A stretch of DNA of 64,000 nt from Alphaproteobacteria bacterium. GTDB taxonomy: Bacteria > Pseudomonadota > Alphaproteobacteria > 16-39-46. The stretch is from contig JAGYKM010000004.1 of NCBI GenBank assembly GCA_018401675.1, positions 34,491 to 98,490 of the forward strand, written 5' to 3'. Position 1 is the first letter of the stretch. Every line of letters starts with the position of its first letter. The notes under the pieces were generated by a model. It was given only the letters and a program-made list of their open reading frames with translations, was not told where the DNA came from and ran no database searches. Of the stretch, positions 678 through 51,186 are shown in pieces. The translations under genes were made by a program, and so were the position numbers.

Positions 678-679
678 TC

Positions 680-13827: not shown

Positions 13828-13829
13828 TA

Positions 13830-28264: not shown

Positions 28265-30422
28265 CGGGGTATCTTGGCGGATTCTCATAGAAGATCTAGC
28301 CCGCATCTATCAAGATCTCACGTCTCATAAAAATCCTGTTTTACCCCTTGAAACCGTTTCTTATGGCCAATGGGGCCATATCCTCCAAGAATATGCGTCC
28401 TCAGACATAGCACAAAGGCAAATTCCTTACTGGAAGGCAGTTGAAGAATTGATTCAACCGTTGCCCACAGATTTTGAAAATGGAGATAATGCCAATTGCA
28501 ACCAAGGGCAGATCTCTATTTCTCTCTCCTCCAAACAAACCAGCTCCCTTCTAAAGAAAGTGCCTCAAGCTTACCACACTCAGATCAACGACATTCTTCT
28601 CACCGCCCTTACTTTAGGGGTAGGAGATTGGACTAAAGTTTATAATCTTTCCATAACCCTCGAAGGCCATGGGCGCGAAGAAATCCTACAAGATATGGAT
28701 TTAACACGCACCCTAGGATGGTTTACCACCATTTTTCCTGTCAATCTCTCTCTAAAAGATCCGAATAATCTTCCTCAAGCCATTCGAACCATAAAAGAAA
28801 TTTTACATGGCATACCACAAAAGGGAATCGCCTACAGTGCCCTTACTACTCTCCATAAGACACAATGCTCTTTAACCTCCCCCATTCCCTCTCTTAGTTT
28901 TAATTACTTAGGTCAATGGAATAAAATATCTCTCGCTGATGCCCCATTCAGCTTATCAAAAGTGCTTCCCTCCCACTGCGTTTCTCCCCTGAATATTTGG
29001 CCTCATGTTTTGAGTATTGACGCCGAAATCCGGAAAAACAACCTCACCTTCACATGGAGCTATAGTGAAAATCATTACACTGAAGAAACAGTGCGTGGAA
29101 TTGCGGAAAATTGTGTCTCTAGGCTTGAGCAAATAATCGATCATTGCTGCACCTTAACATCATCTTCCCATTCCCCTTCCGATTTCCCTCTTGTGAAATT
29201 TACTCAAGACCAAATAGATCAGTATTTCATCAATCTCCCTTTTCTAGACACAGCCTATCCACTTACCCCTATGCAGTTAGGGTTTCTTTTTCATAGCCTC
29301 TATGCCCCAAATTCTGATGCCTACATGGTTCAATCTATATGGAATTTAGAAGGAGTGTTGGATCCAAACTTACTTGAAACAGCCTGGCAACTCATAACGG
29401 ATCAGCATGATATTTTGAGAACAGGGTTTTTATGGAAAGAATTGGAAACCCCCGTTCAATATGTATTAACGTCTTTAAAAATCCCCTTTGTCTTTTTGAA
29501 TTGGATGTCTTTTCCTCCAACTGCTCTAAAAAAACAAATGGAGACTTTTTTCAAAGAAGATCGTCAAAAAGGGTTTGAATTAAACCAAGCCCCACTTTTT
29601 AGAGTAACCTTAATTCAAACAGGCTCTCTCTCTTACACTCTCATTTGGACCCGACATCATATAATTATTGATGGCTGGAGTGCAGCGACACTTTTGGAAG
29701 AACTGATGTGTTTTTATGACTGCTTGATAAGGAAAAAAAGAATCTATCTCCCCTCGCGCCCTCCTTATAGAGACTATATACACTGGATTAACCAACAAAA
29801 CTTCGACGACGAAGCTTCTTTTTGGAAGAAAAATTTAAGTGGAGTTACTGATCCTAGCCGCTTCAGCTTTAAATCAATTGTTCGAAAAAATCTCAGAAAA
29901 GAATATGATGTTTATTGCTTAAAAATGTCCAAAAAACATTCAGCCCATATAAGAACATGGGCAAAAAATAACAATCTGTCGCTCAATACACTGCTCCAAG
30001 GCATGGTAGCTCTTCTTATTAAATTTCTATATCAAAATAATTTTATCATGGGCATGACATTCTCAGGTCGAACGATTGACCTGAGTGACGTTTCGGAAAT
30101 GGTTGGCTTATTTATCAATACTCTACCCCTACGCATAACTTTTGAACCCAAGAAAAGTTTTTCTTCTTTCTTAAAGAAGTTACAACGCCAAATTCAAGAG
30201 TTAAATGCCCATGCCTATGTACCATTAGCAGATATTCAAACCTGGTCTGGCCTTGGATCTCATCTGTTTGACGTTCTATTTGTTTACGAAAAGTACATGA
30301 AAAATGTAAACGACCTTACTTATCCTAATGGCATTAAAAATACGCTCTATAGGCGCATAGAAAAAACAGAATATCCTCTCACCATTGTTGTCAGACGAGG
30401 GGGAAATCGTCTTCAATTTTAA
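28173..30422 (+). CDS. NRPS fragment 2: remainder of the epimerisation domain (HHLVIDGVSWRIL) and a downstream condensation domain (RHHIIIDGWS), overlapping fragments 1 and 3 in different frames
   Basis: E2-type HHxxxDGVSW at about 28247-28276. Second C-domain start YPLTPMQLGF and HHIIIDGWS at about 29652-29681. Confidence 0.8.
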   Translation: MQKALYCQSLLLIWDLKSLRLLIIIHHLVIDGVSWRILIEDLARIYQDLTSHKNPVLPLETVSYGQWGHILQEYASSDIAQRQIPYWKAVEELIQPLPTDFENGDNANCNQGQISISLSSKQTSSLLKKVPQAYHTQINDILLTALTLGVGDWTKVYNLSITLEGHGREEILQDMDLTRTLGWFTTIFPVNLSLKDPNNLPQAIRTIKEILHGIPQKGIAYSALTTLHKTQCSLTSPIPSLSFNYLGQWNKISLADAPFSLSKVLPSHCVSPLNIWPHVLSIDAEIRKNNLTFTWSYSENHYTEETVRGIAENCVSRLEQIIDHCCTLTSSSHSPSDFPLVKFTQDQIDQYFINLPFLDTAYPLTPMQLGFLFHSLYAPNSDAYMVQSIWNLEGVLDPNLLETAWQLITDQHDILRTGFLWKELETPVQYVLTSLKIPFVFLNWMSFPPTALKKQMETFFKEDRQKGFELNQAPLFRVTLIQTGSLSYTLIWTRHHIIIDGWSAATLLEELMCFYDCLIRKKRIYLPSRPPYRDYIHWINQQNFDDEASFWKKNLSGVTDPSRFSFKSIVRKNLRKEYDVYCLKMSKKHSAHIRTWAKNNNLSLNTLLQGMVALLIKFLYQNNFIMGMTFSGRTIDLSDVSEMVGLFINTLPLRITFEPKKSFSSFLKKLQRQIQELNAHAYVPLADIQTWSGLGSHLFDVLFVYEKYMKNVNDLTYPNGIKNTLYRRIEKTEYPLTIVVRRGGNRLQF

Positions 30423-32346
30423 CTATCAAACAGAACATTTTGATAAAAATAATAAAGGCTCTTACGAGTCACTTAGATCATCTTTTCAAAATCTTGTTCC
30501 CACCAACTTAGATTCTTCTTTTCCTTTTATGAGTGAAGGATTTCCTTCCCACTTATCTCGGAAAAAAGTTCCTGAGATGAAAGATAAGATGATTTTCCCT
30601 AACCAGGTCGTGGAAAGCCCAGACCCAGAAAATCTATGCACCACCTTTGAAAATACGGTTACAAAATATGGCTCTACTATAGCCCTGATTCATAAGAAAT
30701 ATACTCTCACCTATTCCGAATTGAATAAAAAAGCAAACCAACTTGCCCACCACCTCCGACAATCCGGCGTTTCTTCTAAGACCTTTGTAGGAGTGCTTAC
30801 CAAAGATCCTGTATACGCAGTCATAGGCCTTCTCGGAATACTAAAATCGGGAGGTATCTATGTGCCTTTGGACCCAAACCATCCAATAAAAAGACTCATG
30901 GGTCTTCTTGCGGATATGAAGTGGCCCATTCTTTTGAGTGACGCTTCTTTAAAAAATACTTTTTCTCAGTACAGAGGCGACCTATTTATATTGGATAAAG
31001 AGTGGTCTTCTTTTAATCAACAGGGAAGTACAAACCCTCCCTCTCTTTCTAAGAAAACCCACTTAGCTTATCTAATATTCACTTCAGGATCTACAGGGAC
31101 ACCCAAAGGTGTTCTATGTGAATTTGGTAGCCTAGAGAATCTCTTGGCATCCCTAAATGCCTCTATCTCTATAGAACCGGGAGAATATTTTTTACAAAAT
31201 GTGTCTTTTTCCTTCGATCCGTCTTTATGGACTACCCTATGGCCTTTACTCCAAGGGGCGACCTTGATTCTTTTGAACTCCAGAGAAATGGCTGATCCAA
31301 AGAGGATCTCTGATATCATACAGAAATATGCCATCAAAACGCTTCATGCAGGCCCCTCCCTCACGAGGAGCATATTAGCTCAAAAAGATATTCTTACTAA
31401 AATAAGATCTCTAGAACACCTAATCGGAGGCGGTGAACCATGGTCAGTGGAAGACCTCAAACAACTCGTAGGTCTACTCCCGCGCTGTACTTTTACGAAC
31501 GTATATGGCCCCACAGAAACAACAATCCATGTTACCCAATGGACCTACTCATCTATCCACAAAAGGGTTTCTTTGAAAACAATACCCATTGGAAAACCCA
31601 TTATCAATGTACAAGCTTACATTCTCGACGACGATCTAACTCTTTTGCCTCCTTTTGCTCCAGGCGAACTTTATATAGGCGGAATGGCACTGGCGCGAGG
31701 CTATTTGAATGATCCCTCCTTAACAGCCAAAAAATTCATTCCAAATCCATTTTGCACGCCTTCTCTCTTTAATCAAAAAAATTCTCTTAGGTTATACAAG
31801 ACAGGAGATTTGGCCCGTTTTTTATCTGACGGGACAGTAGAATTTTTAGGCAGGGTCGATAACCAAATCAAAATTAGAGGTTTCAGAATTGAGCCTGGTG
31901 AAATTGTGGCTCAGCTCAATAGAGGCACACATGTCTCCACCAGCGCAGTTTTTCTCTCCTGTGAAAACAACGGAGATAAGGCCCTTTTTGCATTCATTGT
32001 GCCTACCCCACATAGAGCTTGTTCTTATGATTTAGGACCGACGTTTTATGCATCCTCAGGAGAAAAAATTTCTCTATTTAAAGGACCATCCCTCATGGAT
32101 GACATTGAGACCTTAAAACAAATGCTATCCGACGAGCTCCCTGATTATTTTATCCCTTCGACTTTTATTTTCCTCAATAAAATCCCTCTTCATCTCAAAG
32201 GAAAACTTGACCCCCTTTCGTTTCCAAAAGAATTCATTTCTGAGCAAAAAGTCAAACCACTATCTCCCACCCAACCAATTATCTTCAGTATCTTATTCTG
32301 GAAAATTGGAAGAGGGTCCTTGGACCCAGAATATTTCTGTAGATGA
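30385..32346 (+). CDS. NRPS fragment 3: end of the C domain plus adenylation domain 2
   Basis: LIFTSGSTGTPKGV, NVYGPTETT, GELYIGGMALARGY, YKTGDLARF, GRVDNQIKIRGFRIE, KGKLD. The frame ends at 32346, just before the T-domain motif. Confidence 0.85.
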   Translation: MLSDEGEIVFNFNYQTEHFDKNNKGSYESLRSSFQNLVPTNLDSSFPFMSEGFPSHLSRKKVPEMKDKMIFPNQVVESPDPENLCTTFENTVTKYGSTIALIHKKYTLTYSELNKKANQLAHHLRQSGVSSKTFVGVLTKDPVYAVIGLLGILKSGGIYVPLDPNHPIKRLMGLLADMKWPILLSDASLKNTFSQYRGDLFILDKEWSSFNQQGSTNPPSLSKKTHLAYLIFTSGSTGTPKGVLCEFGSLENLLASLNASISIEPGEYFLQNVSFSFDPSLWTTLWPLLQGATLILLNSREMADPKRISDIIQKYAIKTLHAGPSLTRSILAQKDILTKIRSLEHLIGGGEPWSVEDLKQLVGLLPRCTFTNVYGPTETTIHVTQWTYSSIHKRVSLKTIPIGKPIINVQAYILDDDLTLLPPFAPGELYIGGMALARGYLNDPSLTAKKFIPNPFCTPSLFNQKNSLRLYKTGDLARFLSDGTVEFLGRVDNQIKIRGFRIEPGEIVAQLNRGTHVSTSAVFLSCENNGDKALFAFIVPTPHRACSYDLGPTFYASSGEKISLFKGPSLMDDIETLKQMLSDELPDYFIPSTFIFLNKIPLHLKGKLDPLSFPKEFISEQKVKPLSPTQPIIFSILFWKIGRGSLDPEYFCR

Positions 32347-33198
32347 TAATTTTTCAACCTTGGTGGGAACTCCTTAACAGCTATGCGCCTTATTTCTCAA
32401 CTCGAGAACCAACTTCATAAAGATTCTATGTTACGGATGTGTTTACCCATCCCACTATTTTTTCTTTTGCTCGACATATAGAGAGTCTGGCGGTGTCTAT
32501 AGGCCCTCAACCCATCTTTCCTATCCAAAGGATGGTCTCAGGTCCTTCTGTTCTTGCTTCATCCCCTGGGTGGCCTTTCTTTTGTTATCTAAGTCTTTTA
32601 AAGTTTATTACTCAAGGCCCCCTCTATGGTTTTAATAACCCAAGATTTGGGAAACAGAACCCTACCTATCCTAGCATTTCTGAAATGGCTCAAGCCTATG
32701 TAAAAGAGATCTCTGGGTTTGCACCATCTACATTTAGTCTGGGTGGATGGTCCTTTGGTGGATTTCTTGCCTTTGGAATGGCTGTCTTCTTCTAGCAAAA
32801 TGAAGTAGCATAGATCATCTTATTCTATTGACTCTCTCATTGAAGACGTCACCACCAAAGTGGCGTCTCCATCTGATTTTGAGGATACCTTATTCCTGAA
32901 GCACAAATTTCTAAAGGACCAACGTATTAACTTAGAGTCCAGAAGGGAAGCTGTCCTAGATCAATTACAATCCAATGAAAAGCTCGCTCAAAATTTTAGG
33001 CCCACCCAAATTTTCCAAGGAACGGTTCATCTTATTCCTGGATTAGCTTCTGTAAAAGCCTCATGGGAGCCCTATGTAGATGGGAAAATCCTTTTCTATC
33101 CTGTTCCCAGCAGTCATCGGGAAATTTTTGATCCCACAGAAGTTTGTCATGTCGCCCACCATCTTAATACGATCCTTTCTTCCACTTCTAACAAGTAG
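32340..33198 (+). pseudogene. NRPS fragments 4-5: thiolation domain 2 and a thioesterase domain, spread over at least three frames
   Basis: DDNFFNLGGNSLTAMRLISQLE (32344-32409) is in a frame not called in the track. 32439..32795 contains ...HPTIFSFARHIE and the TE GWSFGG. 32860..33198 holds the TE C-terminus (YPVPSSHREIFDP, catalytic His region). Confidence 0.7.
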
Positions 33199-33207
33199 GT
33201 TTCAAAA

Positions 33208-35091
33208 ATGCACTGTCAACGTAATGCCTTCATCTTTATGTTTTTGCTCATTTTCTCTGTTTTATCTCTAGGGGCCTTTGCAGGAGAGAATAAGGACCTT
33301 GAAGAGTGGGCTGCGGCGGCCACTAACTCCCTTCGCAAGAAACCATTGGTTCTTATGGGCCCTAGTTCATGTGGTAAAACTACCTCCTTACGTCTTCTGT
33401 CCCAGCGTCTTCCTGATTTATCTCATTTGGAACATGTAGTTTTTTTCAATAAGGTAGTTAACTCTTTTTTAAGAAAGTATGATAGTCAAACGGTAAGCAC
33501 ATTAAGGACTTCTTTTGGAAATAGTTTTTTCCATATTTTGTTCAGTGCCGCGCTGGGAAGCAGTCACGTCCATCAAGCAAACCTACCCCAAGAACTTCAA
33601 GAGATTCTCCAAACCATCCAACTAGATCTCCGAGCGCAAAAAGACAAATTTAACAGAGACAAACTTGTTGTAATGGAGCAAGAAGCATCTAAAAACCACG
33701 ATTTACGTCTTCCTGTTTCTCTTGGCATTCGCACTTCAACTGTTCATCTAAGAGCCTTTGAAAATTTAAATCCCCATAGAATTATGCTCACTTGCCCGAT
33801 TCAGACTCTAGTCACTAGATTTTTGGCGCGCAATGAGGCTGGCGTTAGGGAAAACAACTTTGCTCATTATCGGCCTCCGGAAGAGTTTGTAAATCGTCTT
33901 TCAGAGGTTTTTATTTTTTCCAATACGCCCCTGCAAGGACGTCAGCCTCTCGAACTGGTTCCTGAAGCTAGCTTATGCAATTTAGTACAAGCGGTTTATG
34001 GCTCGGCACTTCACGAGAGTAATGCATTCAATCCTCAAGATCCACTATGCCAACTGGATGCCCTTAGTTCAGGAACCATTTATGTTTACAATAAGCATGA
34101 ATATGATCATCTGATTGACGTACAAGAAAAGAGCCCAGAGACAGTCGTTCAAGAAATTCTTCACTACTTAGCTTACCAAGAACATCTTAGAGTGTCTTTG
34201 CGTACCCAGTATAGAGATTTTGAACTCTCCCACATGTGCGCCCAAAATACCCCCTTGCTTCTTCTGACAGGAGTGAGCTCAAGCGGTAAATCTACATTGT
34301 GCCGAGGGATGCAACAAAGTAATCCTTCTCTCATCGTTATTGAATTTGATAAAATTTTCTTCGGACACTGTTTTAGTTTTCTTAAGGAGGCCTATCCTGC
34401 TGCTTATGAAATGAGTAGATTAAAATTGGGGGATGCTCTTTTATATTATATGTTCTCTCCACTCGATCCAACGCATCCGTTTGGTAGAAAATTCATACCT
34501 GAGCCACAGTTCTCTAGTGAACTGACTTCCTTGGAAAGCAATCTCACAGATTTAAAAACCTCCTTCCATAAAAATTTTGAAACTATCTATTCTACGTCTT
34601 GGAGGGAAGCCATCAAGACAAGTTATGTTTACAATAGTTCAGGGGTCCCAGTGGTTGTTGATTCCGCCGTTCGACCCTCTCTTTTAGAATTTTGGAAAAT
34701 GCATCGTCCTAGTGTACAAACAATTCTTGTTTATACCCCGCTTTCATCAGTAATTCGGCTTCTCCAAATTAGAAATAAATTTGCCTTAGCCCATCATCTC
34801 CCTCTTGCTTGGAGAGACCCCCTTCCTCTCGTGACCCAATTCTTCACTTATTATGAACTTAAGGATCGCGTCGGGTTTTGGGATGAACCTCTTGAATATA
34901 TTGATAAACAAGGTTTACTAAACCAACTGGAAAATGTGGCTCCCTTCATGAATAACACTCAATTCAATGACTTAGAATTGCTTTTAAAAAGAATTGGAAA
35001 GAAGCGCTCTTGGGTGACTTATAGTTCGAGAGCTTACGACCACGTTCTTTTCTTATCTCCTTTTGAACGTGCCTTGGAATATGTATTATAG
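33208..35091 (+). CDS. Secreted protein with two tandem P-loop kinase-like domains (CPT/AAA_33-like)
   Basis: Signal peptide (MHCQRNAFIFMFLLIFSVLSLGAFA). Walker A LMGPSSCGKTT and a second LTGVSSSGKSTL followed by IVIEFDK, reminiscent of chloramphenicol-phosphotransferase-like kinases. Confidence 0.55.
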   Translation: MHCQRNAFIFMFLLIFSVLSLGAFAGENKDLEEWAAAATNSLRKKPLVLMGPSSCGKTTSLRLLSQRLPDLSHLEHVVFFNKVVNSFLRKYDSQTVSTLRTSFGNSFFHILFSAALGSSHVHQANLPQELQEILQTIQLDLRAQKDKFNRDKLVVMEQEASKNHDLRLPVSLGIRTSTVHLRAFENLNPHRIMLTCPIQTLVTRFLARNEAGVRENNFAHYRPPEEFVNRLSEVFIFSNTPLQGRQPLELVPEASLCNLVQAVYGSALHESNAFNPQDPLCQLDALSSGTIYVYNKHEYDHLIDVQEKSPETVVQEILHYLAYQEHLRVSLRTQYRDFELSHMCAQNTPLLLLTGVSSSGKSTLCRGMQQSNPSLIVIEFDKIFFGHCFSFLKEAYPAAYEMSRLKLGDALLYYMFSPLDPTHPFGRKFIPEPQFSSELTSLESNLTDLKTSFHKNFETIYSTSWREAIKTSYVYNSSGVPVVVDSAVRPSLLEFWKMHRPSVQTILVYTPLSSVIRLLQIRNKFALAHHLPLAWRDPLPLVTQFFTYYELKDRVGFWDEPLEYIDKQGLLNQLENVAPFMNNTQFNDLELLLKRIGKKRSWVTYSSRAYDHVLFLSPFERALEYVL

Positions 35092-37250: not shown

Positions 37251-37444
37251 ATTTTATAAAAGTTTTAGTGCACCTAATGATCTTGTATGATGAATTCTAG
37301 AGCTAAGAAGACGAACTTGCCTAGTTATCGAAGTATTTTTGTCTAGTCGAACTTATCCATAACTTGATTCAAGCTTGTCTTTTGAAACAGTTATAATACA
37401 ATTAGACCCAATGATAATAAATTAACAAATCAGAGAGTTTGTCC

Positions 37445-37576
37445 ATGAAAAAGATACTCATTTCGACAGGTGTTTTGGCCATAGCCTTTACTTTGGTCGC
37501 CCCCACCTCTTATGGGCAGGAGTGGTGGCAACATCGTTTAAAGCTCGTTTCCAACGTTCCCCAGAACAAAACATGA
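37445..37576 (+). CDS. Small signal-peptide ORF (43 aa), possibly the start of a frameshifted small secreted protein that continues in 37522..37719
   Basis: MKKILISTGVLAIAFTLVAPTSYGQ signal peptide. GAGAG lies upstream. Confidence 0.2.
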   Translation: MKKILISTGVLAIAFTLVAPTSYGQEWWQHRLKLVSNVPQNKT

Positions 37577-37913
37577 TGATTCAAAAAGCGGCCTCTAAAT
37601 TATCAGGTGTCGATAAAGAGACAAGAGGAAGATTATTAAAAAAGCGAGCCGGTATTTGCAAAATAGTTGTCCCTCTTTTTACACGCTGTCAATCAGAAAT
37701 GGTTCGGGTCATTCCGTAACTAGTTCCGCAGCAAAAAAAAACGAAAGCAAGAATACTGTTGTTGCTATCTTCCATTTAAAGAAATAATAACGGGAAACAT
37801 AGAGATCCGAATACCAAGAGCTCATTCCTAGAATTTCGTTCCACAGAGTCCGATTCTCTATCAAATACATAAAAAGTCGTACCTCTAGAGATGAAGATAG
37901 GCTTTTTTACCCT

Positions 37914-40246
37914 TTAAGTAAAATCTAGCGCACCGCAACCCTCTAAGTGATCTGCAAGAAGATGCACTTGGCTATGAGCTAAATTGATTCCATTCATTTG
38001 TCGAAAAATATCCCCATGGGCGATAAAATTTCTTTCCTCCCTCATCGCTTCCCACATTCTTGCTTCAGACTCAGGAACCACAGCTTCTCTTGCAACCCAA
38101 CCTTTGAGAGCGCCAACACCTACACTTAAGGAATATACAGAGGCTAGGTACGAGGTGGGATTTTCTTTAATTGCTTTAGGCAAGTCAACCTCATGAGCTA
38201 TTTTATAAAAACGTTTCATGGCTTCTTTACTAAATTCAATAAAGTCAGGATCAGTGGCTGATGGATATTTTAGCTTCTTTAGCTGCTTCATTTTCTTTAG
38301 TTTTTTAAGCTGTTCCAAACCCATTTCTGTTAAGTTGGCATATCCATATTCATCTACAGTGGCGTGTGTTGCGTGAAGTTGGCTTATGTCTTTCTCCAAT
38401 GCTTGCATTTTCGGATCAGACTCTAATCTTTTATAAAAGGCAAACTTCGTCGGTAATGTGAGTGCTTCTTGAACCATACGCTCGTTAAAACCAGGACCAT
38501 GAGCGAGCTCATGCAGGTGGGTTGTGGTTCGCTGAAACATAGCCTTATAAAGCTCTTTCCGGGCAGGTTGGTCCAGATCCTTGGCGTTATCCAAGGGTAA
38601 ATTGCTGCACACATTTTGGGTGATGAGCATCTCTGCTCGGAAACGGTTAAAGACAGCAGACAGAGCTTGAAATCGAACTTAGCTACTACCGACGCGTGCA
38701 CAAATAAATTGCTATGGTATGGTGTCAGATGGGCTTGATCCATGGTTAAGAGACCAAGACAAAAGCATGCAATATGGGGCGTATCAAAATGCTCCTGGGC
38801 CACCCTTATTAACAGATCCGTTTCTACCTCCTGAAGATGCATGGCCCCACTGATAAGACGACGCCACAGATAGTCTTTTACTCCTTTATATCCATCTAGA
38901 AACTTCTGAGATTGCCTTGAATCCGCCTGGGTAGGAATGAGCATCTCTAATGCTTGGATCTTCGCATCCAATTTTTTCAGCAAGAGATACGTGACTTGGA
39001 TTTGTCCACTTATCCCCCTTCCCCACAATAGAGCATCTTCTTTAAATAATGGCGTTTGGCGAAAGATTTTTTTAATGGGCTTTTCCAGAGAAGGACTTTG
39101 TGGCGTTCGGGCGCTAACACCATATACAGGCGCGCCGTCCAATTCATTTTGTAACCACAATTCAAAAACTACCCTAGGGTCATCTCCCCAAATCATCTGC
39201 TTAGCTTCGAAGATTCTTTTTTGTAAAGTTTCCAGTTCTAATTGCCACTTTTTAAAATTAATTGAGGGGTCACGTCCCCCCACAAGATTTTCAAAATAAA
39301 TACTAAATCCATGTTCATCTTGGTGTTCCAGCGCATCTCTCAAATGGACCAACTTAACCCAAGGGATGGTGGGCATTTTTTGACGCACAAAACTGGAGAG
39401 ATTTTTATTTGTTGCCAGTTCACCAATCTGGATCATGCCAGCCAGAAAAGCCTCTCTTTGCTCAACCTGGGTAAACTCAGGAATAGCCATGACAATACTC
39501 ACTTCATCTCCAATCCGGCCAAGAGTGAGATAATCATGAGCCATAGCAGAAAGAACCCTGAGCCCCTTCAGTTGAGAACTTGGTACTATAGCCCTTATTT
39601 CTTTCTGGGCTGCAGCTTTAGGCCCACCTGCTAATGACGTAGCAAGATCAACAAACTTCTTGAGCTCTTGCACCTTAACTTCATGGATAGGATCCGCCAA
39701 AGGGTGTCCTGCATACACAAGTTCTAAATCGTGCACCAAGCCAAAAACAGTTCTCAGAATAGGTAATTCTTCCTCAATAATTTTCCCAATTATTTTGCTA
39801 TAGGATGACCCTTCAGCCACGTCAAAAAGATTTGTACGGTAATGAAACACTTGGGCAAGTCGATCAAAAGTAAATAAACTAAAGGGAAGCTGTACAGAGT
39901 CTACCCATTGTTCAACAAAAATATCATAACGCTTTTTGAAGTCAGGGTGCTGCAGATTGACAACATCACATACATCAATAAGGAGCTCAGCAGTATGAGA
40001 GCTTGAAGCTAGAGTTTGGGCACCGTATTTTGTTGTTCCCGCCTCAATAAAATCAAGAATCCCAAGAGCCACATGAAAAGGCACACCTGGACGCTTCAAC
40101 TCAGTCCGGGTATCACGCAAAACACCGTGTCCGTTCTCCACAAACCCATCAACTTCCTCACTCCAAACACAACTTCCTTCTGAGTGCAACACGCTAAAAA
40201 ACAAAAAAACATACCCAATAAGTTTTACCCGTTTAAAAATTCTCAT
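37914..40246 (-). CDS. Large hypothetical exported protein (~800 aa) split by a frameshift into 38423..40246 and 37914..38630
   Basis: N-terminal signal peptide (MRIFKRVKLIGYVFLFFSVLHS). The two ORFs overlap by 208 nt in different frames. No Walker A, so it is not VirD4. Confidence 0.45.
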
Positions 40247-40381: not shown

Positions 40382-41300
40382 TTATTTTGCTTCCCAAATA
40401 GCAGTCACTCTTCGTTTCCCATCACTTTGCTTATCAACTTGAATCACTTTGTCTAAAACGCTCCGTAAATAGGGTCCACTTTGGAAGGTATCATGACCAC
40501 TCAGAATTAAATTTGTTGGAACGTATGATCTAACGCTGCTTGGGGAGAATTGGCATGAATAGTGTGGACATAAAGCCTTTGTGACCTGTATTCAGTAATC
40601 TTAAAATAGGAAAACAATTATCCACCGAAATCTCGCCCGTAATGAGAATATCGGGACGCATACGCACCACATGATCAATCAAGGATTGATAACTCAGGTG
40701 GCGTGAAGAAGCATAGCGGGGAACACGATAGGAGACCCAATGGGGGTGAGGTAAGTCTAACTCAGGCGTATCTTCAATGGTTATTATCCGTTTGTCTAAG
40801 GGAATCTCTTTTACCAATATATTCAGTAAGCTTGTCTTACCTGAGGACGTCCCTCCAGAAATAAGCATAGAAGACCCCTTTTTGAGGGCTTTCTTTAAAG
40901 ACAGAATTGATGATTGCTCAAGCCCAAAATCTTCCATGGTACGGCTTTGAACACGTCTCAGCCGAACCGATACACTAATGCCATTTTGGACTCGGTCTCC
41001 CCACATGGCTTCAAATCGGTGCCATCCTCCTCGCCTTGCATCGGGGAGAATAGCAGCGAGTAACCCTTGACCTTCAGGCTTAAACTCAAGGCCTTGTTCA
41101 TTGGCCAACGTGTGGATTAAGCCCTCCCAATAGGACAGTGTTAACCGAGTATCTAAATGATGAAGGAACTCCCCCTTATGAGTTTCTAACACAAACTCAC
41201 CTGGTTTTACCGCCATAATTTCCACAAGAGTTAGATCGTCCAAAAAACCTTCCCACGGCCTCAGAAGACTCCCTAAAAGAGGGCTTATTGGAGCAATCAT
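40382..41300 (-). pseudogene. virB11: Type IV secretion ATPase VirB11 with two frameshifts in the C-terminal third (pseudogene or indel errors)
   Basis: Track ORF 40530..41300 contains Walker A GGTSSGKTS, Walker B IITIED, RMRPDILITGEI and His-box LNTGHKG. It then reads ...MSTLFMPILPKQR*. Shifting frame gives TIHANSPQAALDH, and a second shift gives NLILSGHDTFQSGPYLRSVLDKVIQVDKQSDGKRRVTAIWEAK*, which is the canonical VirB11 C-terminus, ending at about 40382. Confidence 0.85.
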
Positions 41301-43608: not shown

Positions 43609-44658
43609 TCAGTGAGCTTGGTCCACCCCACGCATCCAGATATCGTTCATAGGAATGATGAGCAATCGAGAACCACTCGCCACATCCATCACTGGTGCTA
43701 TGTTGATGGTCTCTTTAAGGGTTTGCGCTGTCATTTGGGCTGTTTGTAGACCAAGCATTCCTGTGCTTTGCTGAACCACGCTGGGCAAATTATTGCGCGT
43801 GCCAGCAGCGGCTAAGGAAGAGAGGCCTGCCAAAACAAACGCAGCTCCATATTTATCCCATAACCGATGATTCAACGATCCCGGAATGCCCTTTCGACCC
43901 ATATGATCTGCCACATAAGAATCTGTTAGCACCACGTTAACGCCGTCAGGGCGTAATATTCTGGTACACGTAGCGATCAGCCGAGAATGTCCTTCACCGG
44001 ACAAACTTTCATAGGCGCAAATAAGTCGTGATCCTTTGGGAAGAATAATTTTGCGGCCCCGGTTCGCAAAAACATGCTCATCCACTATGCCAATAAATCG
44101 CCCTCCCATCTGACTATTGATGCTGTTTTCGAGAACAATAGGAATATATCTATCCGCCGTCAAAACCCGATCACTCCTTACAGGAAAAGTCGACACATCT
44201 TCACCGATGGATGGCAAGTGAGTTTTATAGTCAGGATCCACGGGAAATGACGTCTTCTTTTCAGGTTTTTTTGTAAGAGATACAGTTTTCCGCCCTTGAA
44301 GTGCTTGTTCCCGTTTCCTTTGAGCCATTTCCACTTCATAAGGCATAAATACCTCTTCTGACTTTGAAAAAGCTACTTCCGGTTGATCTTGAGCAGGTTC
44401 AAGTTGCCACTCTTGGCTCTCTTCTTGTATTTGTTCCACCACTTTGTCCTTGGGGGGATCTGGCATCTCATGAAGTCTTTGGGAGATAAAAGGAGAGGCC
44501 AAGAGAGATTGAGTCCCTGTCTGGGTCCCAACAGCCTTCTTGTGTTGAGGCTCTTCCCAGCACCCCACTAATCCACTTACCAAAAGTAAACCAACCACCT
44601 TGCCTGCACAGGTATGTTTTGGGATTGATCTTGTATCCGTTTTTCGAGATGAAGCCAT
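43609..44658 (-). CDS. virB10: T4SS protein VirB10 (TrbI family)
   Basis: N-terminal TM, Pro-rich linker, conserved C-terminal domain (...IPIVLEN..GRFIGIV...RLLIIP). Confidence 0.9.
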   Translation of the reverse strand: MASSRKTDTRSIPKHTCAGKVVGLLLVSGLVGCWEEPQHKKAVGTQTGTQSLLASPFISQRLHEMPDPPKDKVVEQIQEESQEWQLEPAQDQPEVAFSKSEEVFMPYEVEMAQRKREQALQGRKTVSLTKKPEKKTSFPVDPDYKTHLPSIGEDVSTFPVRSDRVLTADRYIPIVLENSINSQMGGRFIGIVDEHVFANRGRKIILPKGSRLICAYESLSGEGHSRLIATCTRILRPDGVNVVLTDSYVADHMGRKGIPGSLNHRLWDKYGAAFVLAGLSSLAAAGTRNNLPSVVQQSTGMLGLQTAQMTAQTLKETINIAPVMDVASGSRLLIIPMNDIWMRGVDQAH

Positions 44659-45621
44659 TTAAGACGCCTCCATGGGCTCAATACATACCACTTTCTTTCC
44701 GCTTTTAAGGCTGAGGGGTCCAAACCCTTGAACCACAATCTTTGTGCCCACCACTCTTGTATTGACCGGGGTATCCACGCCATCTACCTTCTTGTAAACA
44801 GCGGGAAGAGTTACAGAATCCCATTTTTTTCCGTAATCGAGCCATATCCATAAGCCATCCGAATAGACATGAAGAGGCGCTATGCTCATGGATGCTTGGT
44901 CTTTAGCTGACATTTCAAAGGCAAAGGAAATCTCATCAAGATTTGGGTGCAAGGTCTCCAAATAGTCAGACTCACTGGATTTTTTTTCTGCCTTCGAAAA
45001 AGATACCTTGTGTTTACTTGGGTAGGAACCTTCCTTTTTCTTGACTAAAGATAGGGGTTCACTAGCCTTAACGTGGACCACCACATCAGGAATATGAATG
45101 CTTAAAATAGGCTCAGACCGAATGTAAAATCCATATACATATCCGCTGGCTCCGATAAGCGTCATGGTGGTATCGCATTCCTCCTTGCGGGCCAGGATAC
45201 TGACTATGTGAGATGCTTTTTTCTCTGCTAAGAACAGATGATCATCTCCCATAAGAATATCTTGAATTTCTTCCCACTCAGGCAAAATTACTGTGGAAAT
45301 CATAAAAGGTCGGGCCTTAATTTTGATTAGCCTCTCCGGTTTAAATTCCACCACATATACCCCGTCGTTGGGGGCCGCTTTATCCCAAGCTCCTTGAACT
45401 TGCCCTAAAGGAATGCTCTCGGGCCTTTCCAACTTTTCACTCACATCTTGCCCTAAAAGAGTTGTGTTCTCAAATAACTCCACAGGAAGGTCAGGTAGAT
45501 CTTCCGTTTGAGCTCTTACCTCCCCATCACACAACAGAAAAAGAAGGCCTAAGCCCAACAGATGATACCTTCTAGAGAGGATCATTCTGCTCTCCTTGAG
45601 GCGATTTTTCACCCACCCCAT
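44659..45621 (-). CDS. virB9: T4SS protein VirB9 (TrbG/CagX family)
   Basis: Signal peptide (internal start MILSRRYHLLGLGLLFLLC at about 45585). Abuts virB10. Typical size. Confidence 0.8.
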   Translation of the reverse strand: MGWVKNRLKESRMILSRRYHLLGLGLLFLLCDGEVRAQTEDLPDLPVELFENTTLLGQDVSEKLERPESIPLGQVQGAWDKAAPNDGVYVVEFKPERLIKIKARPFMISTVILPEWEEIQDILMGDDHLFLAEKKASHIVSILARKEECDTTMTLIGASGYVYGFYIRSEPILSIHIPDVVVHVKASEPLSLVKKKEGSYPSKHKVSFSKAEKKSSESDYLETLHPNLDEISFAFEMSAKDQASMSIAPLHVYSDGLWIWLDYGKKWDSVTLPAVYKKVDGVDTPVNTRVVGTKIVVQGFGPLSLKSGKKVVCIEPMEAS

Positions 45622-46363
45622 AGGTCGTCACGTAAAATCCACAAGGATTATGGTAACGCTCTTCAAATTTCACCCTGTGGGTTTCAAATTTGATGGTCAG
45701 CGTAGATACCCAGCTTTGGACTTTGGTCTTGACGCCATTCTCGTAGTCAACACTGTCCCAGTCAACTTGAACGATATAGGGTAGCTTTGATAAGGTAGCC
45801 ACCGACCGAATTGAAACATGCCGGGTAAGCCCCCGGTTTTTTCTTTTCGAAAATAGCCCCTCGCCCTCCCGAGACATGAGTTGCTTAAAGGCTTGAAAGA
45901 CTTCTGGAGCACTGAAATTAAATATTTTTTGCCATCTCATTTCTTCTGTTTGAAGGTCTATATCTTCTCTCAGTTTCACATACTCTCTCGATAAGGATTC
46001 AACCATGAGAGCAAAGCCCTCAGTATGAGTGGCAATAGGCTCGATCTGCACGATTTGTTCTGTTTGAGGAGAAAAAGTAACCAACAAAGGCTCTACCTTT
46101 TTAAGAGGGAATAGATCAAAAAATAACATACAAAAACAAAAATTTATTATAAATGATCCAAGTAAACATACCCCAAGGAGCCTACATATCCAGTATAGTG
46201 TTCGATAAGCATGTCCAGTTTCCAAGGGACGCCCTTTGGCCAGAGAGGGCAATATAGCATCCTCTCTCTTATGTCTATGTAACCTAAAAACAGTTACAAT
46301 TAAATTCATAAAATATTTTCTTTGCTCTTTTATCGATCCAACTAAATTTTTCATGAAAGCCAA
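45572..46363 (-). CDS. virB8: T4SS protein VirB8
   Basis: Bitopic protein with an NTF2-like periplasmic domain and an NPCGFYVTTY motif (NPxGF). Confidence 0.8.
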   Translation of the reverse strand: MAFMKNLVGSIKEQRKYFMNLIVTVFRLHRHKREDAILPSLAKGRPLETGHAYRTLYWICRLLGVCLLGSFIINFCFCMLFFDLFPLKKVEPLLVTFSPQTEQIVQIEPIATHTEGFALMVESLSREYVKLREDIDLQTEEMRWQKIFNFSAPEVFQAFKQLMSREGEGLFSKRKNRGLTRHVSIRSVATLSKLPYIVQVDWDSVDYENGVKTKVQSWVSTLTIKFETHRVKFEERYHNPCGFYVTTYGVGEKSPQGEQNDPL

Positions 46364-46578
46364 ATACCATTTCTGTAGAATACATCACCACAGGGACATA
46401 CTGACTCTTTCAACTCATCTATACCTGACCCTACCCCCACCACCTCTTCTTCTTGACTTGAGCATCCCACCATACTCACCAGCAAAATACCTATCCCTAT
46501 GGGGAAAACCTGTCGCCATGTTTTTTTGTAGGTAAAACGGATATTCCTAGATGTTTCTCTCGTATTAAGCCCATCCAT
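46351..46578 (-). CDS. virB7: VirB7-like small lipoprotein
   Basis: 75 aa with a signal peptide ending ...ILLVSMVGC (lipobox-like Cys) and Cys residues in the mature part. Canonical position between virB6 and virB8. Overlaps both neighbours. Confidence 0.45.
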   Translation of the reverse strand: MDGLNTRETSRNIRFTYKKTWRQVFPIGIGILLVSMVGCSSQEEEVVGVGSGIDELKESVCPCGDVFYRNGIWLS

Positions 46579-47488
46579 AGCGTTTAGCCCCTCCTTTGTT
46601 TCCTAAAAATGTTCCCGCCACATACATGGCGTAATATCGAGCCCTCAAATGGAAATACCCAGATATAAATCCCAAAATCCAAATGGCCCAGTAAGCTTTA
46701 GAGAAAATAAATCCACTTATATTCCCCGCAGCCTGTTCCCCTCCAACCGGGATGAGGGGGGCAAATTTTTCGAACACTGCCAAGGTAAACCCCATGGCAA
46801 GACAAGAAAAAAGAAGGGTAAAAGTACCTGTAACGCCAATCCGAAGAGTATTGATGGCCATACCTCGGGTGCTTTCAAAGCAAAGAGCGATAAAAATCAG
46901 CGGGCTGATAGCTGTCACTATGAGAATTGAGAAAACAAAATCTATCAAAACAGCCAAAAAAATACATAAAGTGGCCATATAGGGAATAATAAAAATAATT
47001 CCCGCTATAAACGGTTTCCAGGAGGTCCATCCAGCTTCTTCCAAGAGAAGGCCCCACAATTGAAATACTGTTTTGTGCCATGCCCCGTCTACGCAGGAAA
47101 GAACGCCTTCAAAAGTTGCTGTTTGGATCGACGCTCCGCTCCGCATGATAATAACTTGTGCAATACCTGAAACGCTTTTCAAAAAAGGTTCATGCATAAA
47201 ATCCCAGTAGAAAGTAGATCCTTTTAACAAAATACCCATAAGACAAAACAACCCGAGATTCTTTAAAACCAAAGATCGATCAAAATCTGCTTTTAAGATT
47301 AGATGAAACAGAATTTGCCAGGCCACCCAAGCCCCAAGGCTCGCTTTAAAAAGTATCCACACCGGATCCAGGAGGTGCATATACACATCTTTTCCATACA
47401 CCACGCTAAACTCATAGAAGGCACCATACATCTCACATACATAGCACCGAGGATCTGGCTGAATCAGGCTCACGATAGTTGCCCCCAA
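46565..47488 (-). CDS. virB6: T4SS protein VirB6 (TrbL family) polytopic membrane protein
   Basis: Multiple TM helices at typical length, in operon position. Confidence 0.8.
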   Translation of the reverse strand: MGATIVSLIQPDPRCYVCEMYGAFYEFSVVYGKDVYMHLLDPVWILFKASLGAWVAWQILFHLILKADFDRSLVLKNLGLFCLMGILLKGSTFYWDFMHEPFLKSVSGIAQVIIMRSGASIQTATFEGVLSCVDGAWHKTVFQLWGLLLEEAGWTSWKPFIAGIIFIIPYMATLCIFLAVLIDFVFSILIVTAISPLIFIALCFESTRGMAINTLRIGVTGTFTLLFSCLAMGFTLAVFEKFAPLIPVGGEQAAGNISGFIFSKAYWAIWILGFISGYFHLRARYYAMYVAGTFLGNKGGAKRYGWA

Positions 47489-48216
47489 GGAAAGTCGGCC
47501 CCCTGCCCAGGCGATGTCCTGGGCTCGTCTCTAAGCAAGAGAGGGGAATGCCTTAAAGTATCACTAGCTGAAACACCCATAATGTGCGTCAGAGCCACCC
47601 TCATCTGTATGGTTTCATGAATGAGAAGCATGAGGAGATTATTGGTCAGCCCTACATCGCTCCTTAAATCTCGGCCCTGGGCGGATTGGCTCGCAATTTC
47701 TTCCAGTTTACCGTAATCTTGCTCTATGAGGGCTCCACTCCGAATTGAGAGCGTCAAAGCATTCAAGGTAAGATCCCTTAACAGAGCCTCTCTTTCTGCC
47801 ATCAATAAATGATGACTGGTAGGCGTATCAGAGCCTATTGAATCCATTCGCATAAGTCGAGAAAGGTGTTCTCTAACACTCTGTGAGGTCTCTTGGGAAG
47901 ACATGGAGCCCACTTTAGGAATCCATCTGGCAAAAGTCTTTTCCAAAGATTTCGCTCGGGTGACGTAGGCTGTGATCGTTCCATAATTCAAGGGAATCTG
48001 AGATCCCATAATAGTCTCCACGTCAGAAACACTTTGAATCACTTCTTTTTGGATCTCTTTAAGTCCCTTCATGGATGAAAGTAATTTTTCACAAAGCGTG
48101 TAGACAAGAGGGTCAAACACCTCTGAAGGGACTCCTTGACTTTTGAAAGGATACAACCACAGCATATTTAGTAAGCACACACTGCTGCATATTTTTGACC
48201 TTCTTAGTCTTTTCAT
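47470..48216 (-). CDS. virB5: VirB5-like minor pilus subunit (positional assignment)
   Basis: Start MKRLRRSK... overlaps the virB4 stop by ATGA. Signal peptide, predicted alpha-helical, about 250 aa, between virB4 and virB6. Confidence 0.4.
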   Translation of the reverse strand: MKRLRRSKICSSVCLLNMLWLYPFKSQGVPSEVFDPLVYTLCEKLLSSMKGLKEIQKEVIQSVSDVETIMGSQIPLNYGTITAYVTRAKSLEKTFARWIPKVGSMSSQETSQSVREHLSRLMRMDSIGSDTPTSHHLLMAEREALLRDLTLNALTLSIRSGALIEQDYGKLEEIASQSAQGRDLRSDVGLTNNLLMLLIHETIQMRVALTHIMGVSASDTLRHSPLLLRDEPRTSPGQGADFPWGQLS

Positions 48217-50579
48217 GATATTTTTCCTTGAGAACAGGCCTCTAAATAGGGCCCAACCCAATTGTGATCACCATGGTCTTTCACCATCTTCTGCATTAGT
48301 TTCTGAAACGAAAGACCAGATTTATAGAGGTAGAGAAAATCACCCAAGGCCAATAGATTAGCATCCACCACCACTGACGATTCTGGCCTTTTGATAAGCA
48401 CGCCTCGTGATAAGGAGCTAAAGCGCTTTTGAGTACTTTTTATAAAATTCCAATCATATTCCGTTAAATTAAACATTTCATAATCCTGTTGACGAGCTTT
48501 GGGATTAGGGAACAGAAATACTGTAGGGCACTGATTCAACAAGGTATCGCGTATCCCGCTTTGGGCTATGGACTGAGCATCTTGAAAACATAAATTCACA
48601 GAGCCCCTCAGCTTCCGATGCTCGCGCAAGAGCACTTGAACGTGGGCACAAAAATGGGAGTCTTGCAAAAGAGGAGCCGCTTCATCAATGAATATCATAT
48701 GAGGGAAATTATGCTGCCGCACTTGGGACCTAATTCTATTCAAAATATAGTCCACCATAGGTTCCATCACGCCGCTATCCCCCGGTAAAGAGGTCATGTC
48801 AAAAGACACCAACTGGGAAGAATGTAAATCCAGATCATCTTTTACACCGTTAATAAGGCGACTGTTGGCCCCTTGGGCCCAAGTAGCCATATGGGATCTC
48901 AGAACAGAATTTGCAGGAAAGGCACTCTTGTAGAGTTTTGCTAAACTTCTGTCCTGAGGAGGGACTTCAAAAAGAAGATTGAGGAATCTTTCAATATCTT
49001 CCCCAGGATCATCTTGAGCCACACTTCCCAGCCGCCTTAAAAAGTGCCTTAGAAACATAATATTATCTGGGGTTGGATCGCACAAAAGAGGATTTAAGGA
49101 GAGATTGCCGTCAAACTTAATGTAAGTGCCCCCTACGGAACGTGTGAATACTTCAGTGCCGCAGAATCGATCAAAGATATACCCATGGAGCTCCTTATGT
49201 CTCAAAGCACCCCCAATAATATGTTGGAAGAAAGTTGTCTTCCCCCCATGACTCGGGGCCACTGTAAGCGTGTGAGCTAAGGATTCATCTTCAGGGCCAA
49301 CGTGAACTTGGAGGGCATACTTTTGACGGTCCCAAGTCCAAAAATGCCGCAAGGCACCTTGACCCCAGTCTGACCTTTCTTCTCCGCAAGATGAAGGCTC
49401 AAAGTTGAACAAAAAAGATAAATTCCGTGCAAACACATTCCTAGGTCTTAAGGCCTTATCGTAGGTGGGAAACCGTGAAAACCAATACCATTCAATGGCA
49501 GCGCACTCTTGGATCATGCGCATACCATACTGTATGCACACTCTTCTCAATATCTCACCATAAGCGGTTAATGTTTCCTCATCCGTGGCTTTCAAAAACA
49601 CAAGACCCTGATACTCATAAAAAGCATCCTTAGATCCATCTATTTCTCCGATGGCTTGCTCAAACTGAGCTGTTTTAAAGGCATTTTTGTAAAAAATGTT
49701 TTCTTGTCGGGATCGATACTTCAAAAGAGTTGTTGCTTGGTATTTTCCCATCCCTTGAAAAAAATGCATCAGTTCAAAATCCATAGGTAATTTATACAAA
49801 TCTTGAAAAACCTCAGGAGAAATTTTATCTCCAAAACTCTTTAAAGAGTGCACACTCCAAATACGTTTCTCCTGGTCTTGGGTTATACGGATAAAACCTG
49901 ACTTAAGATCAAATTGAATATCTGAAGCTGAGATCTTTTCACTGACCTCTCTCCCAAAAGCCGGTAAGGCGTCTGGTCGTATATTGACCATTTCTCCCAA
50001 GAAGCTCGACAGAGGGCTGGATCCAGAATCACTGGGATTACTTCTTTGGGTTAGAATAACCGGCTTAAAATAATCAAGATAGTCGAGCGTTGCCGCCACA
50101 TTATCTTCCAGGATTTTTCTTGAAGCCCCTTGGAGAATCAAAGTGTGTTCTATATCTTGCCAGGACAAAAATTGGTCCTCCCAACGCCTATGAATCTCTT
50201 GCATCACTGGAGACAAAGAGGATCCATCCAAGGGTACCTCTTGGTGTTTTTTTCTTGTAAACAAACGGAAAGGGCTTCCCAATGAAGCCATGGCCTCAAA
50301 GTAGTTTTTCTTTTTTTGAAAAATACTTTCCTCATCGTCAGCTCCCGACGCGCCTTGGTTAGGGCCTTGTATTCTTATAAATTGGACGAATGTTCCGTCT
50401 TTGCAGTGAATGGTCTTCCCGTCTTCCAGAATGCTATCAAAGGGCAGATAGTCGGAGATATATGAAAGCTTAAACTGCCACTGCAAGAGTTTTTTTAAAA
50501 GAACTCCAAAGCCCAAACCACCTAGGGTGAGAAAAGTTATAGCGCTAAAAGTACTAGTAAAGGACACGGAAATCCTCAC
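48213..50579 (-). CDS. virB4: T4SS ATPase VirB4 (TrbE/CagE family)
   Basis: 788 aa. Walker A APSHGGKTT, Walker B MIFIDEAA. N-terminal membrane-associated region. Confidence 0.95.
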   Translation of the reverse strand: MRISVSFTSTFSAITFLTLGGLGFGVLLKKLLQWQFKLSYISDYLPFDSILEDGKTIHCKDGTFVQFIRIQGPNQGASGADDEESIFQKKKNYFEAMASLGSPFRLFTRKKHQEVPLDGSSLSPVMQEIHRRWEDQFLSWQDIEHTLILQGASRKILEDNVAATLDYLDYFKPVILTQRSNPSDSGSSPLSSFLGEMVNIRPDALPAFGREVSEKISASDIQFDLKSGFIRITQDQEKRIWSVHSLKSFGDKISPEVFQDLYKLPMDFELMHFFQGMGKYQATTLLKYRSRQENIFYKNAFKTAQFEQAIGEIDGSKDAFYEYQGLVFLKATDEETLTAYGEILRRVCIQYGMRMIQECAAIEWYWFSRFPTYDKALRPRNVFARNLSFLFNFEPSSCGEERSDWGQGALRHFWTWDRQKYALQVHVGPEDESLAHTLTVAPSHGGKTTFFQHIIGGALRHKELHGYIFDRFCGTEVFTRSVGGTYIKFDGNLSLNPLLCDPTPDNIMFLRHFLRRLGSVAQDDPGEDIERFLNLLFEVPPQDRSLAKLYKSAFPANSVLRSHMATWAQGANSRLINGVKDDLDLHSSQLVSFDMTSLPGDSGVMEPMVDYILNRIRSQVRQHNFPHMIFIDEAAPLLQDSHFCAHVQVLLREHRKLRGSVNLCFQDAQSIAQSGIRDTLLNQCPTVFLFPNPKARQQDYEMFNLTEYDWNFIKSTQKRFSSLSRGVLIKRPESSVVVDANLLALGDFLYLYKSGLSFQKLMQKMVKDHGDHNWVGPYLEACSQGKIS

Positions 50580-50878
50580 CCACGATAGAGCATTATATGG
50601 GGATGAAGGCGGGCCTTATGCTTGTTCTTAAAATACCTTTGAGCCCATAAAATGCGCAGACAATCCCCGTCTTTAAGCGTTATCCAAAAAGAAAATCCTG
50701 TACCCACTATCAATGCCAGGAAAGCGATAAGAAATCCTCCTTGGGCCACACAAGACATAATAATCCCCACGGAGAAGGACCCAAAAATAGTGCACCCGAA
50801 TAATTGAGGGATCATCCCCAAAATTCGCGTAGGATGAGAAATCAAAGTAAGAATAGTGGCAGGCTCTAGGACACTCAT
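50576..50878 (-). CDS. virB3: T4SS protein VirB3
   Basis: About 100 aa (start MSVLEPATIL... overlapping the virB2 stop) with a single hydrophobic hairpin region. Directly upstream of virB4. Confidence 0.55.
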   Translation of the reverse strand: MSVLEPATILTLISHPTRILGMIPQLFGCTIFGSFSVGIIMSCVAQGGFLIAFLALIVGTGFSFWITLKDGDCLRILWAQRYFKNKHKARLHPHIMLYRG

Positions 50879-51186
50879 GCTGCACCAATAATAAATTGCA
50901 TGACAAATTCGAAAGAAGCCATCAACAATGCGGCCCCCACTAAGGAAATACCCCAACGATAGTTAATACGCCCAAAAATAGCTTGAAGTAGTAAGATAGC
51001 CCCTGAAAGGCCACAAGCCACCGTCCCGATTTTCAAAACTCCCTGAGTTGTAATATTTATTTTTTCCGCGATGGCCGCAAAGGGATCAGCCCCTGCTTCT
51101 CCACCAGACATCATGCACATTAATGTGCAAAAAATAATATATCTGACAAACAGTATCCTGTCTTTATGAAACATCCCCAGCTCCAA
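50875..51186 (-). CDS. virB2: T4SS pilin VirB2 (TrbC family)
   Basis: 103 aa. Long signal peptide then two hydrophobic segments (GTVACGLSGAILLLQAIFG...ISLVGAALLMASFEFVMQF). First gene of the operon. Confidence 0.6.
   Translation of the reverse strand: MELGMFHKDRILFVRYIIFCTLMCMMSGGEAGADPFAAIAEKINITTQGVLKIGTVACGLSGAILLLQAIFGRINYRWGISLVGAALLMASFEFVMQFIIGAA

Follow-up and report, generated by a model that had tools for sequence, protein, structure and literature searches.

Genes for the core components VirB2 to VirB4 and VirB6 to VirB11 of a T4SS lie in one operon on the minus strand of the window, i.e. the whole 64-kb stretch of DNA that was analysed. The gene order is virB2-B3-B4-X-B6-B7-B8-B9-B10-X750-virB11, and virB11 is the frameshifted gene. 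From its first gene to its last, the cluster contains the following features:

50875-51186, minus strand: virB2/TrbC-like pilin gene, 55% to its counterpart in the related locus L084
50576-50956, minus strand: gene for a virB3-like small membrane protein, recognised from related loci
48213-50579, minus strand: virB4 ATPase gene, recognised from Pfam, NCBIfam and related loci
47470-48261, minus strand: X263, a 263-aa protein in the place of virB5, with weak similarity to the protein at the corresponding position of the related locus L085
46565-47488, minus strand: virB6, with a TrbL domain
46351-46578, minus strand: virB7-like small lipoprotein with a lipobox (...MVGC), with homologs in relatives, where ORFs of 52-54 aa occupy this position (E 9e-14)
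45572-46363, minus strand: virB8, recognised from Pfam and related loci
44659-45621, minus strand: virB9, with a CagX domain
43609-44658, minus strand: virB10, with a TrbI domain, identical in the Logan contig L082
41297-43549, minus strand: X750, a conserved subfamily-specific protein encoded between virB10 and virB11, with a signal-peptide-like N-terminus
41300 to 40382, minus strand: virB11, 305 codons once corrected, with PF00437 and TIGR02788 as best match

The ten T4SS genes besides virB11 (about 10 kb) are intact and have the lengths seen in relatives. Pfam, NCBIfam and PDB searches gave no match for X750. Homologs of 718-980 aa are encoded between virB10 and virB11 in ten related loci (L002, L004, L005, L084-L088, L090 and L091), and the conserved portion of the family is the C-terminal ~480 aa. 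X750 is an uncharacterised component of this T4SS subfamily rather than filler.

The window also encodes mreB-mreC-mreD-mrdA-rodA, recJ, lipA, lpd-pdhC-pdhB-pdhA, typA, gap, tkt and gshB. Since these housekeeping genes are found across the window, the T4SS locus is chromosomal. The TypA protein shares no more than 76% identity with any other protein, its named neighbours are uncultured Alphaproteobacteria, and the window appears to come from an unannotated MAG of a deep lineage within this class. In a search for ICE boundaries, the window showed no tRNA genes and no Rfam families, and no integrase was found among the ORFs scanned with Pfam. Three further observations were made away from the cluster. 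A 627-aa protein with a signal-like N-terminus and two P-loop kinase-like modules (GPSSCGKTT and GVSSSGKST), giving weak AAA-type Pfam matches, is encoded at 33208-35091 (plus strand), in the low-GC accessory stretch, between the NRPS gene and the side where the T4SS lies. At 13438-14396 (minus strand), between recJ and a VTT/DedA-family gene, a DUF4280 protein of 129 aa, which we take to be PAAR-like, adjoins an unannotated secreted-looking protein of 188 aa; the window holds no other T6SS genes. At 291-2371 (plus strand), the C-terminal part of an asparagine-synthase-like gene, which is truncated or runs off the start of the window, precedes an ABC exporter, an arrangement that is reminiscent of a lasso-peptide/RiPP export pair.

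The three frames of virB11 were translated on the minus strand from 41300. Uncorrected, the gene consists of a 256-aa ORF (41300-40530) and two out-of-frame pieces. Frame 1 is VirB11-like through ...LLNTGHKGFMSTL and meets a TAG stop (40530-40532) 11 codons on, so that it ends ...NTGHKGFMSTLFMPILPKQR. Frame 3 carries ...TIHANSPQAALDHTFQQI, up to a TAA stop at 40507-40509. Frame 2 reads TNLILSGHD...DGKRRVTAIWEAK and ends ...TNLILSGHDTFQSGPYLRSVLDKVIQVDKQSDGKRRVTAIWEAK at the stop at 40382-40384. When the three pieces are stitched into a protein of 305 aa, 97-99% of its length aligns to homologs of 300-330 aa, with E-values down to 5e-90. A protein search with this stitched sequence returned thousands of VirB11/TrbB/CpaF-type ATPases, the closest being 43-51% identical. 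In an alignment with 11 homologs, the middle piece retains the family-invariant residues T246, H248, A249, N250 and A255, and the last piece retains N263, G268, L278 and D283. As invariant residues of the His box and of the C-terminal domain are kept in the out-of-frame pieces, the two-shift structure of virB11 is far beyond chance. Three-frame translation and homolog alignment thus agree with the earlier note, in which virB11 needed two frame corrections and continued in the two other frames.

The corrected protein scores 88.9 bits against the Pfam T2SSE domain PF00437, above the gathering cut-off of 24.9. Its Walker A, Asp box, Walker B and His box (GGTSSGKTS, EDTPEL, RPDILITGE and GHKGFMSTIHANS, respectively) are invariant across 12 homologs. 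PDB matches are CpaF (1.8e-27) and VirB11/HP0525 (about 1e-17 to 1e-18). The best NCBIfam match of the intact ortholog described below is TIGR02788 VirB11, at 141.8 bits and under the equivalog cut-off of 249.95. This VirB11 represents a divergent subfamily.

An intact allele is available from a closely related strain. The 90% cluster of the 256-aa ORF of the window (P0001) contains one other protein, P0121 (ENA ERZ27315791), which is 305 aa long. It is encoded on a metagenome contig of 1484 bp, L001, that aligns to positions 41642-40177 of the window with 98.6% identity. Positions ~1466-1484 of this contig read CTGTCTCTTATACACATCT, which is the Nextera transposase adapter, i.e. untrimmed adapter and not genome; the contig was accordingly derived from Illumina reads. 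Over 1465 nt, 17 substitutions and only two indels separate the contig from the window. Both indels lie in virB11:

40562-40566, minus strand: lesion 1, +2 nt, a CA duplication (CCACACT, against CCACT in the ortholog; GTGTG on the plus strand)
40512-40514, minus strand: lesion 2, -1 nt (A3, against A4 in the ortholog, at FQQN LILSGH; TTT on the plus strand)

At lesion 1, the minus strand reads TCCACACTATT in the window and TCCACTATT in the sister contig, and the insertion divides the His box of virB11 (GHKGFMST | IHANS). The two frame corrections are 51 nt apart, and positions 40537 and 40524 between them carry G>A changes that are specific to the window; the latter puts Thr in place of the nearly invariant Ala259. 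All the window-specific damage to virB11 (+CA, two G>A, -A) therefore falls within 52 nt. Outside this patch, the two alleles differ by 10 substitutions in 735 nt upstream and one in 133 nt downstream, which are shared between the two lineages. Removal of CA and addition of A give a 305-aa protein that differs from P0121 at seven residues only. By our own count, the virB11 differences between the two strains are seven non-synonymous and six synonymous.

Of the two single-base corrections proposed in the earlier note, the number stands but not the size, as the lesions are a duplication of 2 nt and a loss of 1 nt. Comparison with orthologous loci, also proposed there, was carried out: virB11 is intact in the sister contig and in the related locus L084, and broken in the window. 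An uninterrupted ORF of about 300-330 codons is thus present in the sister strain (305 aa), whereas the window gene stops after 256 aa. At the level of the species, the sister allele indicates that virB11 is intact whether the lesions are real or an artefact.

Two mutational origins of the patch were considered and rejected. A templated or quasi-palindrome mutation is not suggested, as no hairpin is predicted (z-scores +1.3 and +1.0) and each altered motif occurs only once in the window. The same lack of a second motif copy in the window speaks against gene conversion from a paralog, and only two substitutions accompany the indels.

Frameshifts were also found in three other genes of the window:

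37914-40246, minus strand: downstream hypothetical of a ~790-aa family, with one -1 frameshift near 38675 (AAGGCT>AAGCT)
6819-7937, minus strand: rodA, split into ORFs of 192 aa and 159 aa, with TGA and TAG stops in a garbled stretch
25808-33198, plus strand: two-module NRPS gene (A-PCP-C...A-PCP-TE), in many pieces

Frames were assigned with a crude codon-usage Viterbi procedure, which mis-called part of rodA, and were confirmed by eye and with Pfam. Downstream of virB11, two ORFs of 607 aa and 238 aa are colinear on a single 790-aa homolog (P0263). In relatives, this family adjoins RiPP-like genes, a ParE/Phd pair and F-type tra genes, with no VirB cluster. The unrelated, frameshifted hypothetical of about 800 aa that had been noticed at this place is indeed one gene of the ~790-aa family, with one frameshift and no link to T4SSs in relatives. 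Two Logan contigs from run SRR14300309 (L082, window 45354-43008, and L083, window 38890-37079) together match 4.2 kb of the window at 100% identity. The second one spans the frameshift at 38675, which is thereby reproduced in an independent short-read assembly and indicates that real pseudogenes exist beside virB11. Among the Logan gene products, none matches the 256-aa VirB11 ORF or its intact form. Within the stretch identical to L083, three consecutive small ORFs occur in three frames at 37439-37787 (plus strand), with a signal-peptide-like start (MSMKKILISTGVLAIAFTLVAPTSYG), and may be another small broken gene.

The rodA lesions are a -1 in a G4 run (7362-7365) and a +1 in a T4 run (7323-7326), 39 nt apart. 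When both shifts are undone, a RodA of 372 aa results in which the FTSW_RODA_SPOVE domain is continuous (5-354/356, 348 bits). The neighbouring genes mreB, mreC, mreD and mrdA are intact, and compensating indels of this kind in a core gene have the look of an artefact of the consensus. In the NRPS gene, single shifts near 28240 and 30386 are the only two in the first 6.4 kb. The PCP-TE part (32270-32830, 560 nt) contains about nine frame switches and one in-frame TAG, and the stitched 3′ end gives full PP-binding (7-67/67) and thioesterase (3-224/226) matches. About 36 kb of other intact coding sequence, with 299 homopolymers that are 5 nt or longer (34 reach 7 nt or more), has zero frameshifts. 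A nanopore-only error model was rejected on this ground, since these homopolymers are in frame inside intact ORFs.

The T4SS proteins are nearest, among the matches listed, to those of Paracaedibacteraceae/Holosporales MAGs and of a Candidatus Caedibacter acanthamoebae plasmid; a JGI metagenome scan returned relatives only at 45-47%. The same gene order, including the X750 homolog, was seen in every related locus examined. P-like vir T4SS operons are known from the plasmids of Candidatus Caedibacter acanthamoebae (Cca; Wang and Wu 2017, PMC5751055), and the related loci examined correspond to them. The cluster belongs to a vir family of the P type whose members reside on plasmids and ICEs of amoeba symbionts (Paracaedibacteraceae/Holosporales). 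With the elements of Candidatus Caedibacter (Paracaedimonas) acanthamoebae plasmids and of Paracaedibacteraceae/Holosporales, it shares the order B2-B3-B4-X-B6-B7-B8-B9-B10-(~720-980-aa protein)-B11, with 24-52% identity for VirB4, B6, B8, B9, B10 and B11 and 26-34% for X750. Unlike these elements, the cluster of the window sits between housekeeping genes and has a frameshifted virB11.

Most Cca-type elements continue with a lytic transglycosylase (SLT), VirD4 and a MobA/MobL relaxase, whereas the window is devoid of all three. In L085, L086/L087, L002, L005, L090 and L091, virB11 is followed by the SLT and VirD4 genes, and VirD4 also comes after virB11 in L003 and in a contig of GCA_041443045.1. 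A large MobA/MobL relaxase was called nearby in L086/L087, in L090 and in the GCA_041443045.1 contig. In the 64-kb window, tblastn with two cognate T4CPs and with two SLT queries gave nothing better than E=0.5, and two MobA queries from related loci found no match at E<=1. Pfam searches on all large ORFs of the window revealed no T4CP. The earlier statement that no VirD4 follows virB11 is in line with these searches. A T4CP profile search of a collection of 5.8 billion proteins that includes those of this MAG found no T4CP of the subfamily on the contig of the window; the NCBI-sourced matches that were followed up (P0290, P0291 and P0325) belong to other genomes.

The locus L084 (chromosomal, MAG GCA_018242545.1) is among the closest relatives. 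It has the same operon, including the X750 homolog, and its VirB6 and VirB8 are 50% and 49% identical to those of the window. As in the window, SLT, VirD4 and relaxase are missing, here from the 10 kb that follow the operon, and the flanking regions appear to be chromosomal. Its VirB11, unlike that of the window, is an intact ORF of 307 aa, 47% identical to the window protein.

Taken together, virB11 is an ordinary gene for a VirB11 traffic ATPase and the last gene of a chromosomal T4SS cluster of the P type (VirB-like). This cluster would descend from conjugative vir elements of the type carried by the Paracaedibacteraceae/Holosporales amoeba symbionts. Its downstream DNA-processing module (lytic transglycosylase, VirD4 and relaxase) would have been lost whole from the chromosomal copy, and the absence of VirD4 would reflect this loss. 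In the present record, a patch of 52 nt with four differences breaks an allele that is otherwise 98.6% identical to the intact one.

For the origin of this patch, a local error of consensus or assembly in the MAG contig, breaking virB11 only in this record, is given about an even chance. The intact 305-aa ortholog comes from an independent Illumina contig that shows no further indel in 1465 nt, and the ten other T4SS genes are intact. Decay after inactivation should spread along a gene, and the clustering of the damage was therefore counted toward an artefact. The same signature of a tight patch is repeated in rodA and at the 3′ end of the NRPS gene, and neither a hairpin nor a local donor for a single templated mutation was found. 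Against an error, the error-free homopolymers imply that the chemistry was not generally prone to indels, a CA duplication is no classic platform error, and we can name no assembly process that quantitatively fits patches of 50 nt. Moreover, the 38675 frameshift, which adjoins virB11, is present in the contig from SRR14300309.

The competing explanation is a genuine, very recent and strain-specific pseudogenisation, in which a T4SS remnant lacking SLT, VirD4 and relaxase is decaying and virB11 was struck first. It is a serious contender that falls somewhat short of even chances. The mechanism would be a clustered mutational event, with slippage at the CAC and the A-run and nearby transitions, beside the real pseudogenes of the 790-aa hypothetical and the NRPS. 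The independent short-read support for the 38675 frameshift is in favor of it, as are the error-free long homopolymers elsewhere and the fact that the frameshifts of the window, rodA excepted, sit in accessory genes of a lower-GC stretch at 24-41 kb. The seven non-synonymous and six synonymous differences in virB11 hint at weak constraint, and if VirD4 was truly lost, the loss of the energising ATPase is plausible. Against it, four changes fall within 52 nt of virB11, with none elsewhere in the window lineage. The -1/+1 pair of rodA and the distribution of the NRPS shifts (about nine against two) are very unlikely under uniform neutral decay. The remaining T4SS genes are intact, and so is virB11 in the sister strain at 1.4% divergence.

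Both sets of observations could be reconciled if the single frameshifts (the 790-aa hypothetical and the 5′ part of the NRPS gene) were real and the dense patches (rodA, the 3′ end of the NRPS gene and virB11) were consensus errors. We infer that the virB11 patch is an artefact, which is slightly more likely than a true mutation, and the organism probably encodes an intact VirB11 of 305 aa. Explanations other than an artefact or a recent real inactivation share a very slim remainder.

It is improbable that the lesions are real and that the ten intact genes form a chromosomally domesticated T4SS that has X750 as a lineage-specific secreted subunit but no T4CP, relaxase, SLT or cognate VirB11, working with an ATPase encoded in trans or with VirB4 alone. 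Still less credit is given to a functional ComB-type DNA-uptake machine lacking VirB11 and VirD4, with the frameshifted virB11 as a tolerated relic. VirB2 to VirB10 and X750 are intact, as such a machine would need, and the best NCBIfam match of VirB10 is the ComB10 model (128 bits, cut-off 300) over the VirB10 model (108 bits). Both scores are far below their cut-offs, and this match does not count as evidence for a ComB system; the cluster reaches none of the ComB equivalog thresholds. Nor is there an affinity to the ComB of Helicobacteraceae, as the nearest loci, among the matches listed, are alphaproteobacterial conjugative elements with T4CP and relaxase. Furthermore, VirB11 is intact in L084 and in the sister strain, and ComB itself requires a VirB11-family ATPase, HP1421/ComB11, that is encoded away from the comB operons (PMC13395361). 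The absence of VirB11 is therefore no hallmark of ComB, and the ComB-type resemblance suggested in the earlier note is not supported. Finally, programmed recoding or phase variation is barely conceivable. Both lesions do lie at short repeats (CACAC and AAA), but the tracts known for slippage or phase variation are much longer, and a +2 as well as a -1 shift would have to be bypassed. Neither a slippery heptamer (on inspection) nor a stimulatory structure (fold z-score +1.3) was found, and the sister allele is simply in frame.

If the lesions are an artefact, the patches in virB11, rodA and the 3′ end of the NRPS gene would give rise to false pseudogene annotations, and the correct reading of virB11 is the intact one. 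With real lesions, the locus is another case of a conjugative T4SS remnant in decay, in an alphaproteobacterium that resembles an endosymbiont, and the intact sister allele helps to date the loss. Should the lesions be real and the ten other genes be kept, a VirB machine would have been caught in transition and could be compared with the intact sister strain. In either case, the understanding of T4SSs is unchanged. The locus, a divergent chromosomal VirB cluster of the P type and of the kind known from amoeba symbionts, without a T4CP in the window, will not surprise a specialist; its only mildly novel element is the conserved unannotated gene of ~720-980 aa between virB10 and virB11.

Among the known systems, the ComB system of Helicobacter pylori has no VirD4 and no virB11 inside its operon, and the VirB10 of the window resembles ComB10 below threshold. 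In the cluster of the window, by contrast, virB11 lies inside the operon, is intact in the sister strain, and the kin are conjugative elements. The minimal P-type set VirB2-B4 and VirB6-B11 is shared with the VirB/VirD4 system of Agrobacterium tumefaciens, and the VirB11 proteins of both have the Walker A, Asp box, Walker B and His box in common. The cluster differs from that system by the absence of VirB1, of a clear VirB5 and of VirD4, by the extra 750-aa gene before virB11, and by a VirB11 that scores below the TIGR02788 cut-off (141.8 against 249.95). The VirB-type operons of Brucella (VirB) and Bordetella (Ptl) are chromosomal, lack VirD4 and depend on VirB11 and PtlH, respectively, and their substrates are known. 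As T4CP-less chromosomal VirB systems that keep VirB11 are well known, the absence of VirD4 is not unusual. The role of VirB11 in Brucella has been described (PMC5137499). Neither of the two operons has a sequence-level affinity to the cluster of the window or contains an X750-type gene; as a functional analogy for the intact form of the locus, Brucella VirB and Bordetella Ptl would nonetheless be better than ComB.
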